A stretch of DNA of 64,000 bases from Escherichia coli (GTDB taxonomy: Bacteria; Pseudomonadota; Gammaproteobacteria; Enterobacterales; Enterobacteriaceae): the NCBI RefSeq assembly GCF_016903815.1, contig NZ_CP069973.1. One strand, given 5' to 3'. Position numbers and translations under genes: made by a program. Shown here piece by piece: positions 42,953 through 44,699 of the stretch. The notes under the pieces are model-generated. The model ran no database searches. It was not told the DNA's origin and worked only from the letters and a program-made list of their open reading frames with translations. The stretch's first letter is position 1, and the number at the start of each line of letters is the position of its first letter.

Positions 42953-43436
42953 TTATCCGGTGCGCCGTAAAACCCCGTCCTTCAGGGCGGGGATATAAGG
43001 CGCGGTTTTCCACCTGACCAGGTGTTTGCTGTTGTTCAATGTATTGGCGGATGACGGATATTGGCGCACCTCCGCAGCTACTGGCAAAATAGCCAGGACT
43101 CCACAAAACGCCTTTGTAGTAATACCTGACTGCAATATCTGGTCGATCTCGTCGCAGTCACCTACCCGATACGCCTTTGAGGCTGTTTACCAGACTGGAT
43201 ATCGCCAGTTTGGGAGGATAGTTAATTAACAAATGGACGTGATCTGGTTCGCCATCCATTTCAACCAGTTCAGCTTCAAAATCAGCACATACATCTGAAA
43301 AGTAAGTGCGTGGTTTTTCTGTCGCGTCATGGTCAAAAATCTGGCGTCGGTATTTGGGACAAAGACCAGGTGAACATGCATCAGGAAAACACAATGCCTT
43401 CCACGCCGGATATCGGTTTCTTTTTTCACAGACCAA
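42918..43436 (-). pseudogene. tnpA: IS200/IS605-family tnpA (HUH Y1 transposase), disrupted by at least two frameshifts
   Basis: Three frames carry consecutive TnpA segments: ..HVHLVFVP | KYRRQIF...DHVHLLINYPPKLAISSLVNSLKGVSGR | WSPGYFASSCGGAPISVIRQYIEQQ; first shift is at the short A-run in GTCCCAAATACC. Confidence 0.8.
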
Positions 43437-44699
43437 AATATAATTTGACCTGTGAAACGACGACAGGCATTTAAATTCCAGTTAAGACCCGGTGGTCAAC
43501 AGGAGCGTGAAATGAGGCGCTTCGCAGGCGCATGTCGTTTCGTTTTCAATCGTGCTCTGGCGCTTCAGAATGAGAATCATGAGGCCGGTAATAAATACAT
43601 CCCTTACGGGAAAATGGCTTCCTGGCTGGTTGAGTGGAAAAATGCCACTGAAACGCAATGGCTTAAAGATGCCCCGTCACAGCCATTGCAACAGTCACTG
43701 AAAGACCTTGAGCGGGCTTACAAAAACTTCTTCCAGAATCGGGCTGCTTTTCCCCGATTCAAAAAGCGGGGACAGAATGATGCATTCCGCTACCCGCAGG
43801 GCGTTAAGCTCGATCAGGAAAACAGCCGTATTTTTCTGCCGAAACTTGGCTGGATGCGCTACCGGAATAGCCGTCAGGTCACGGGAGTTGTGAAAAATGT
43901 CACTGTCAGCCAGTCCTGCGGTAAGTGGTACATCAGTATTCAGACCGAAAGTGAAGTATCCACTCCGGTTCACCCTTCAGCATCAATGGTCGGGCTGGAT
44001 GCTGGCGTGGCTAAACTCGCCACGCTGTCAGATGGCACAGTCTTTGAGCCTGTAAACAGTTTTCAGAAAAACCAGAAGACGCTGGCGAGACTTCAGCGAC
44101 AGTTAAGCCGCAAGGTCAAATTCAGCAACAACTGGCAGAAGCAGAAACGCAAAATACAGCGACTGCATTCCCGTATCGCAAATATCCGCAGGGACTACCT
44201 TCACAAAGTCACAACGACCGTCAGCAAAAACCACGCAATGATAGTCATTGAGGATTTGAAGGTCAGCAACATGTCAAAGTCAGCAGCGGGTACGGTCAGC
44301 CAGCCGGGGCGCAATGTCCGGGCAAAATCAGGTTTAAACCGTTCGATACTGGATCAGGGCTGGTATGAAATGCGCCGCCAGCTTGAGTACAAGCAGCTCT
44401 GGCGTGGCGGTCAGGTGCTTGCTGCTCCGCCAGCGTACACAAGCCAGCGTTGCGCGTGCTGTGGTCATACAGCGAAAGAAAATCGCCTGTCACAAAGTCA
44501 ATTCAGATGCCAGGTATGTGGATATACAGCGAACGCCGATGTAAATGGCGCTCGTAACATTTTAGCGGTGGGGCACGCCGTTCTTGCCTGTGGAGAGATG
44601 GTGCAGTGAGGCCGCTCGTTGAAGCAGGAACCCACCGAAATGATTCAGGCGACAGCCTGAACGTAGCAGGGATCCACGTCCTTCAGGGCGTGGAGGATG
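42953..44699 (+). mobile_element. IS605-family insertion sequence (frameshifted tnpA, intact tnpB), inserted in yajI; ends approximate (+/- a few bp)
   Basis: Near-identical subterminal imperfect hairpins CC(C/A)CGTCCTTCAGGGCG(G/T)GG at 42973-42992 and 44674-44693; tnpA remnant on the minus strand; tnpB on the plus strand; no target-site duplication, as expected for this family. Confidence 0.8.
43452..44609 (+). CDS. tnpB: IS605-family TnpB (OrfB; RuvC-like RNA-guided nuclease of the OMEGA type)
   Basis: 385 aa; RuvC-I (GLDAGV), RuvC-II (MIVIEDL), zinc finger CACCGH...CQVCGY, RuvC-III (DVNGARNI). Confidence 0.9.

Follow-up and report, generated by a model that had tools for sequence, protein, structure and literature searches.

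In IS608 and ISDra2, the transposase TnpA acts on two subterminal hairpins and the cleavage motifs at the ends, and excises and inserts the top strand of the element in the form of a single-stranded circle. The second protein, TnpB, assists retention: loaded with an RNA from the right end, it cuts the restored empty site, and recombination with the sister copy returns the element. IS608 targets TTAC and carries tnpA and tnpB in the same direction. Among the IS elements that carry TnpB, TTAT is the commonest left cleavage site, and TTAT and TCAA are the commonest cleavage motifs (PMC9956272). The guide RNA of ISDra2 is encoded from the 3′ end of tnpB through the right end of the element, and the C-terminal tail of the protein overlaps the scaffold in the DNA; the scaffold is 116 nt long and is combined with a 16-nt guide (PMC10097598).

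We analyzed a 64,000-nucleotide stretch of Escherichia coli DNA (contig NZ_CP069973.1, hereafter the window) in which the lipoprotein gene yajI is split by a copy of IS609. The copy has the layout of E. coli IS609, with divergent tnpA and tnpB genes, the ends CCGGTGCGCC...GGAGGATGTCAA and a TTAT target, and sits in yajI instead of next to ydcO, where the K-12 copy is found as insP/insQ. It further differs from the K-12-type element, whose tnpA has an internal stop only, by another combination of tnpA lesions and by a premature stop, S386*, private to the window tnpB. As in IS608 and IS605 of Helicobacter pylori, insertion is 3′ of a tetranucleotide and leaves no duplication, the right cleavage site is TCAA and the imperfect subterminal hairpin at each end contains a mismatched T, whereas the TTAT target and divergent genes of the window copy set it apart from IS608. 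The comparison with ISDra2 of Deinococcus radiodurans (PDB 8exa/8h1j) is similarly mixed: the D-E-D and zinc-finger residues of TnpB are the same and the guide RNA, putative in the window, occupies the same place, but the motif is TTAT (its role as a TAM being presumed) in contrast to TTGAT, the two genes are divergently oriented, the RNAs are unrelated in sequence and a pseudoknot of the ISDra2 type was not located in the window.

IS609 inserted into yajI

The region between 42400 and 45000 of the window retains the K-12 gene order and contains tsx, the split yajI, nrdR and ribD, as seen from the open reading frame map and the sequence. K-12 yajI and its surroundings align to 42436-42953 (97% identity) and 44704-45081 (99%), with ~1.75 kb inserted between the two blocks. 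The 5′ part of yajI (44704..44833, minus strand) comprises the ATG at 44831-44833, the signal peptide, the LSAC lipobox and, in total, 43 codons and 1 nt, while the 3′ part (42547..42956, minus strand) is a pseudogene fragment extending from the second base of codon 44 through the stop codon, which places the insertion point after the first base of codon 44. The RefSeq labels are "missing C-terminus" for the 5′ fragment and "DUF3251 domain-containing protein, missing N-terminus" for the 3′ fragment. When rejoined (42547-42956 and 44704-44833), the two parts give 540 nt, that is, 179 codons and a stop, and the resulting protein matches the uninterrupted YajI of strain Ecol_316 throughout and K-12 YajI at all but 2 residues. 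The original prediction, made from the letters alone, had proposed an IS605-family element between two yajI parts that join to 179 codons, and the family, the flanks and the codon count all proved right.

The ends were determined using the K-12 empty site and six other insertion sites, and place the non-autonomous, 1,747-bp IS609 (IS200/IS605 family) at 42957..44703 on the plus strand. The predicted interval, 42953..44699, thus had the correct length and lay 4 bp too far to the left. A start at 42953 is ruled out as the TTAT at 42953..42956 (plus strand) is target DNA and is kept in the empty-site allele of Ecol_316. This tetranucleotide, the left cleavage motif and the presumed TAM for TnpB, was found immediately 5′ of the element in all eight insertion sites compared, the window included. 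The insertion shows neither target duplication nor terminal inverted repeats, and its flanks join exactly into the Ecol_316 empty-site allele. Six other chromosomal copies, located near yedK, a TetR-family gene, ydcO, yeaQ and yfeD, start with CCGGTGCGCC (CTGGTGCGCC in one of them) and finish with GGAGGATGTCAA, and the similarity among IS609 copies breaks off exactly after TCAA.

Both ends carry a subterminal imperfect hairpin with one T·G mismatch. The left-end hairpin, read from the sequence at 42973..42992 (plus strand), consists of CCCCGTCC, a TTCA loop and GGGCGGGG and is conserved in other copies; the right-end hairpin, at 44673..44694 (plus strand), pairs TCCACGTCCT with AGGGCGTGGA, and the two have the core CGTCCTTCAGGGCG in common. 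The near-invariant right terminus GGAGGATGTCAA (44692..44703, plus strand) ends in the TCAA right cleavage motif at 44700-44703. In the window copy, the hairpins and the cleavage motifs (TTAT at the left end, TCAA at the right) are all intact, and TnpA supplied by another IS609 could therefore still excise it.

Among relatives with only ~56-60% TnpB identity, the last 12 nt, GGAGGATGTCAA, were almost invariant, and in the alignment (A3) this terminus was far more conserved than the adjoining coding sequence.

Among the matches listed, the element showed 97.3-98.6% identity over its full length (1,747 bp) to E. coli copies at the ydcO, yedK, yeaQ, yfeD and TetR-family loci, and several near-identical copies are labeled "IS200/IS605-like element IS609 family transposase" or InsQ/TnpB in RefSeq. 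A 2.6-kb region of the window is 100% identical in many complete E. coli genomes, including those of WCHEC96200 and WCHEC4533, described as ST405 (PMC5762679, PMC9037040). In identical genomes, RefSeq lists yajI as two pseudogene fragments (DUF3251), tnpA as a frameshifted pseudogene and tnpB as the gene of a 385-aa InsQ/TnpB. The element is an ordinary copy of the known IS609 in a known place; it is not new and has already been annotated by RefSeq. Of 5,426 complete E. coli genomes, 5,015 contain IS609-like matches, at least 80% of the element being covered in 4,858, and 340 have the insertion in yajI. Genome 7/2, which matches the window, has IS609-like sequence in 3 places, and a blastn search of the element against the whole window found no second copy.

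Transposase pseudogene and shortened TnpB

The tnpA gene (43020..43444, minus strand), encoding a Y1/HUH transposase, is a pseudogene, labeled "frameshifted; internal stop" by RefSeq. Scored against the intact 143-aa TnpA of another chromosomal copy, it shows a lost start codon (ATG to ATT at 43442-43444), a 1-bp deletion near 43357 and an in-frame TGA stop at 43158-43160, three lesions in agreement with the degenerate minus-strand tnpA predicted originally. The HVHLL (HUH) motif and the RQYIEQ tyrosine region can still be recognized in the frame, and the intact reference is a typical IS200/IS605 Y1 transposase, matching NF033573 at 145.7 bits. Because its tnpA is a pseudogene, the window copy is unable to move itself. 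Across the eight chromosomal copies, tnpA is called a pseudogene by RefSeq in seven and is clearly disrupted by translation in six; in several, no stop closes the tnpA frame, which continues out through the left end. In all eight copies tnpB is open, with 402 codons in seven and 385 in the window.

The window tnpB (43452..44609, plus strand) has a GTG start and encodes WP_071779335.1, named "RNA-guided endonuclease InsQ/TnpB family protein" in RefSeq. The protein scores 388.5 bits against NCBIfam NF040570 (cut-off 100) and aligns end to end with ISDra2 TnpB (PDB 8exa, E about 1e-54). Counted through the alignment, D191, E278 and D361 of ISDra2 correspond to the RuvC residues D183, E267 and D363 of the window protein. 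These and the four zinc-finger cysteines, C334, C337, C353 and C356 in a CxxC...CxxC arrangement, are invariant among seven relatives with 63-98% identity. Judged from its residues, the catalytic core of an RNA-guided nuclease is complete in the 385-aa protein.

The gene had been predicted to be intact and full-length. While this is correct for the RuvC and zinc-finger motifs, the length falls short: 402 aa are encoded by each of 12 other relatives translated (seven E. coli chromosomal and five plasmid copies), and the window protein has lost the last 17 of these residues by a C-to-G change at 44608, which turns TCA into the premature TGA at 44607..44609 (S386*). Beyond it, the old frame remains open to the usual stop at 44658-44660. 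The codon at 44607-44609 is TCA in all seven other chromosomal copies and in the plasmid copies; FDAARGOS_1276, another genome with IS609 in yajI, has a 402-aa TnpB. An exact 61-mer containing the S386* allele was found in 93 of 4,869 matching records.

Compared with relatives of 84-86% protein identity, tnpB has a dN/dS of about 0.07, indicating that the gene is under strong purifying selection at depth. The changes private to the window tnpB are four non-synonymous ones (L4R, V325A, A373V and S386*) and one synonymous one and, small as this sample is, are compatible with a recent relaxation of constraint.

The tail of ISDra2 TnpB, residues 376-408, is disordered and poorly conserved, and the protein lacking it still cleaves DNA efficiently, although it is somewhat less stable without this C-terminal domain (PMC10097598). 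The 17 residues lost in the window correspond to this dispensable domain of ISDra2 and, by analogy, the shortened 385-aa protein would be expected to act as a nuclease. IS609 TnpB has been purified and tested for trans-cleavage only, in a screen where SfaTnpB was the most active (PMC12781874), and we found neither a TAM nor target-directed (cis) DNA cleavage reported for IS609 TnpB in the literature searched.

Conserved RNA structure at the tnpB 3′ end

To model the RNA, we aligned 12 right ends, derived a consensus structure and built a covariance model, which was searched against the window and 80 related loci (81 sources in total); the relatives for the test were plasmid copies and viral contigs (78 loci). 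The search returned 80 matches, including the window and 79 of the 80 related loci. Every match had the orientation of tnpB. Apart from the window itself, 78 of 79 were at the 3′ end of the matched tnpB and the remaining one was a partial match at the end of its locus. The conserved structure, a putative omega-RNA scaffold, spans the tnpB 3′ end and the right end of the element at 44560..44703 (plus strand). It contains five helices on the plus strand: helix 1 (44565-70/44576-81), helix 2 (44587-91/44624-28), helix 3 (44595-602/44611-17), helix 4 (44656-59/44667-70) and helix 5 (44673-82/44686-94), the last being the right-end hairpin.

Among the 80 matches (58 distinct sequences), standard pairs were formed in 94.8% of the cells, compared with 42-55% when the partners were slid by 1-3 columns; the alignment was fitted to the covariance model, which inflates the paired percentage, but the compensatory double changes, found at 20 of the 30 pairs, are plain in the raw alignment. 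The covariation score was 0.402, whereas the slid controls did not exceed 0.102. Applied to the same model-derived alignment without the structure of the model, RNAalifold recovered the same helices. Helix 5 is also the DNA hairpin used by TnpA, and covariation there could reflect a role of either the RNA or the DNA. The TnpA hairpin does not, however, account for three of the five helices, which are located within the coding end of tnpB or extend across it.

The scaffold, making up the last ~144 nt of the element, covers the final 50 nt of the present tnpB reading frame. All of its helices are still paired in the window: an A-U pair replaces the usual G-C at 44596/44616, a C-to-U change at 44569 leaves a G·U pair, and the base altered by S386*, conserved at only 55%, is in the hairpin loop of helix 3. 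The original prediction put the RNA over the 3′ end of tnpB and the right end of the element, with a guide drawn from yajI at about 44700; the placement agrees with the covarying structure, and the start of the guide moves to 44704. Taking the guide length of 16 nt from ISDra2 (PMC10097598), the predicted guide is TGAGTTGCGTCATCTC (44704..44719, plus strand), the first 16 nt past the right end, consisting of yajI sequence antisense to codons 39-44. The minimal 116-nt scaffold of ISDra2 would by the same analogy equate to about 44588-44703 and start at a stem resembling that of RAGATH-18.

This resemblance comes from an Rfam search at a permissive E-value, in which RAGATH-18 (RF03064) scored 29.5 bits (threshold 44.9) at 44587-44630 and HgcC 24.9 bits (threshold 50) at 44603-44716. 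Both families are found at TnpB 3′ ends. As these were the only two Rfam matches and both were below the gathering threshold, assignment to a curated RNA family was dropped. RAGATH-18 RNAs guide the TnpBs of IS607 elements (PMC11061315), and the below-threshold match shares with them a conserved stem and the internal loop CCUGUGGAG...GUUGAAGCAGG; in contrast to the IS607 type, which has a serine recombinase, the window element is associated with a Y1 transposase of the IS605 type. A pseudoknot like that of ISDra2, with the 3′ UGUC pairing ~100 nt upstream, was also sought by eye and rejected: the sole complement, a GACA loop at 44651-44654, is not conserved in six of the relatives.

Close and distant IS609-like tnpB genes were common in P1-like phage-plasmids (two loci) and IMG/VR viral contigs (78 loci), each carrying the conserved 3′ RNA structure. 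Some of these copies terminate in GTCAC instead of GTCAA.

The putative guide RNA is presumably transcribed and processed. A simple promoter scan found no promoter-like site on the plus strand, and the promoter and terminator scan was uninformative for tnpB and for the RNA. On the minus strand, the yajI promoter and 5′ fragment are still present (44645-44893). This remnant could express a truncated lipoprotein precursor of 62 aa, or of 82 aa if translation begins at an upstream ATG, and the predicted precursor ends in 19 residues read from the right end of IS609. Transcripts from the yajI promoter would extend, in antisense orientation, over the putative guide RNA and the 3′ end of tnpB.

Probable retention, possible decay and the second yajI lineage

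The identity of the element, its ends and target motif, the states of its genes and the conserved RNA structure are established. We think it probable that they describe an IS609 copy in yajI whose transposase is dead, whose nuclease core and guide-RNA scaffold have been kept and which is retained through TnpB. Under this model, IS609 would have entered directly 3′ of TTAT at yajI codon 44 by single-strand "peel and paste" transposition, and the insertion knocked out the lipoprotein gene. The TnpA for any excision would come from another IS609. Read-through from the scaffold into yajI would append the 16-nt guide and, after excision, TnpB loaded with this RNA would cleave yajI at the empty site (TTAT followed by TGAGTTGCGTCATCTC), by analogy with ISDra2 and the Geobacillus elements. 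Homologous repair from the sister chromosome would then restore the element. For the window copy itself, this mechanism of retention is reasoned from the related systems.

The same lesions could mark a copy that is decaying as a whole, with TnpB, its RNA or both non-working, no TnpA acting on it and a fixed yajI knockout in the lineage as its only effect. Three independent lesions in tnpA fit such an account, as do the premature stop and three private amino-acid changes in tnpB against a single private silent change, and the lack of a plus-strand promoter-like site in the promoter scan; the limitation of the nonsense allele to about 93 genomes is consistent with a recent neutral or degenerative change. 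We nevertheless consider general decay unlikely: every invariant TnpB residue is kept, the lost tail corresponds to the dispensable and poorly conserved C-terminal domain of ISDra2 TnpB (PMC10097598), the RNA helices are all paired in the window and the hairpins at both ends are intact. It is highly improbable, in turn, that the nuclease and its RNA were domesticated after the loss of tnpA and now serve the cell in gene regulation or in the exclusion of incoming DNA. Open tnpB genes alongside tnpA decay in six of the eight chromosomal copies would suit a cellular role, and exapted relatives of TnpB (TldR) are known (cited in PMC13418256), but TldR proteins are nuclease-dead, whereas the RuvC residues are intact here. 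The predicted guide is, moreover, plain flanking yajI sequence, as expected of a selfish element, the copies are found at many loci with differing flanks, and no host target was identified.

In the reading we prefer, retention by TnpB, TTAT is needed for insertion and presumably also as the TAM for IS609 TnpB. K-12 and most genomes have the empty site TTGAT|TGAGTTG, with TGAT at the target, while TTTAT without the element is a minority allele, present in roughly 28 genomes including Ecol_316; the G-to-T change amounts to Gln45Lys in YajI. With TTAT confined to the minority yajI allele, neither the IS609 target nor the presumed TAM is present at this position in K-12 and most genomes.

A second lineage has IS609 at the same yajI site. 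In FDAARGOS_1276 (element at 601-2348 of the locus extracted), the flanks differ from those of the window at 5 of 1,200 nt and the elements at 27 of 1,748. Among the eight E. coli copies, the two in yajI are not nearest neighbors, and variable sites are shared in a mosaic pattern. The difference suggests that IS609 entered this TTAT more than once independently, that gene conversion took place among its copies or that homing occurred. For homing to be the cause, TnpB would have to cut the empty TTAT-allele yajI under RNA guidance and recombinational copying would have to follow, in place of a single ancestral insertion; we regard this as improbable. If true, the insertion could spread between lineages like a gene drive.

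Beyond correct annotation, the finding is of little importance. It means that one E. coli lineage, with identical sequences in strains reported as ST405, has yajI as a pseudogene made by IS609. Two details may be of use in research on TnpB. TTAT is limited to a minority yajI allele, and the TGAT of K-12 would not be a target. With S386*, the protein loses no more than the C-terminal tail overlapping the RNA scaffold, in effect a natural version of the C-terminal deletion experiment on ISDra2. The locus offers a natural example of a TnpB element that has lost its transposase to decay and still has its nuclease core, its guide-RNA structure and its two ends.
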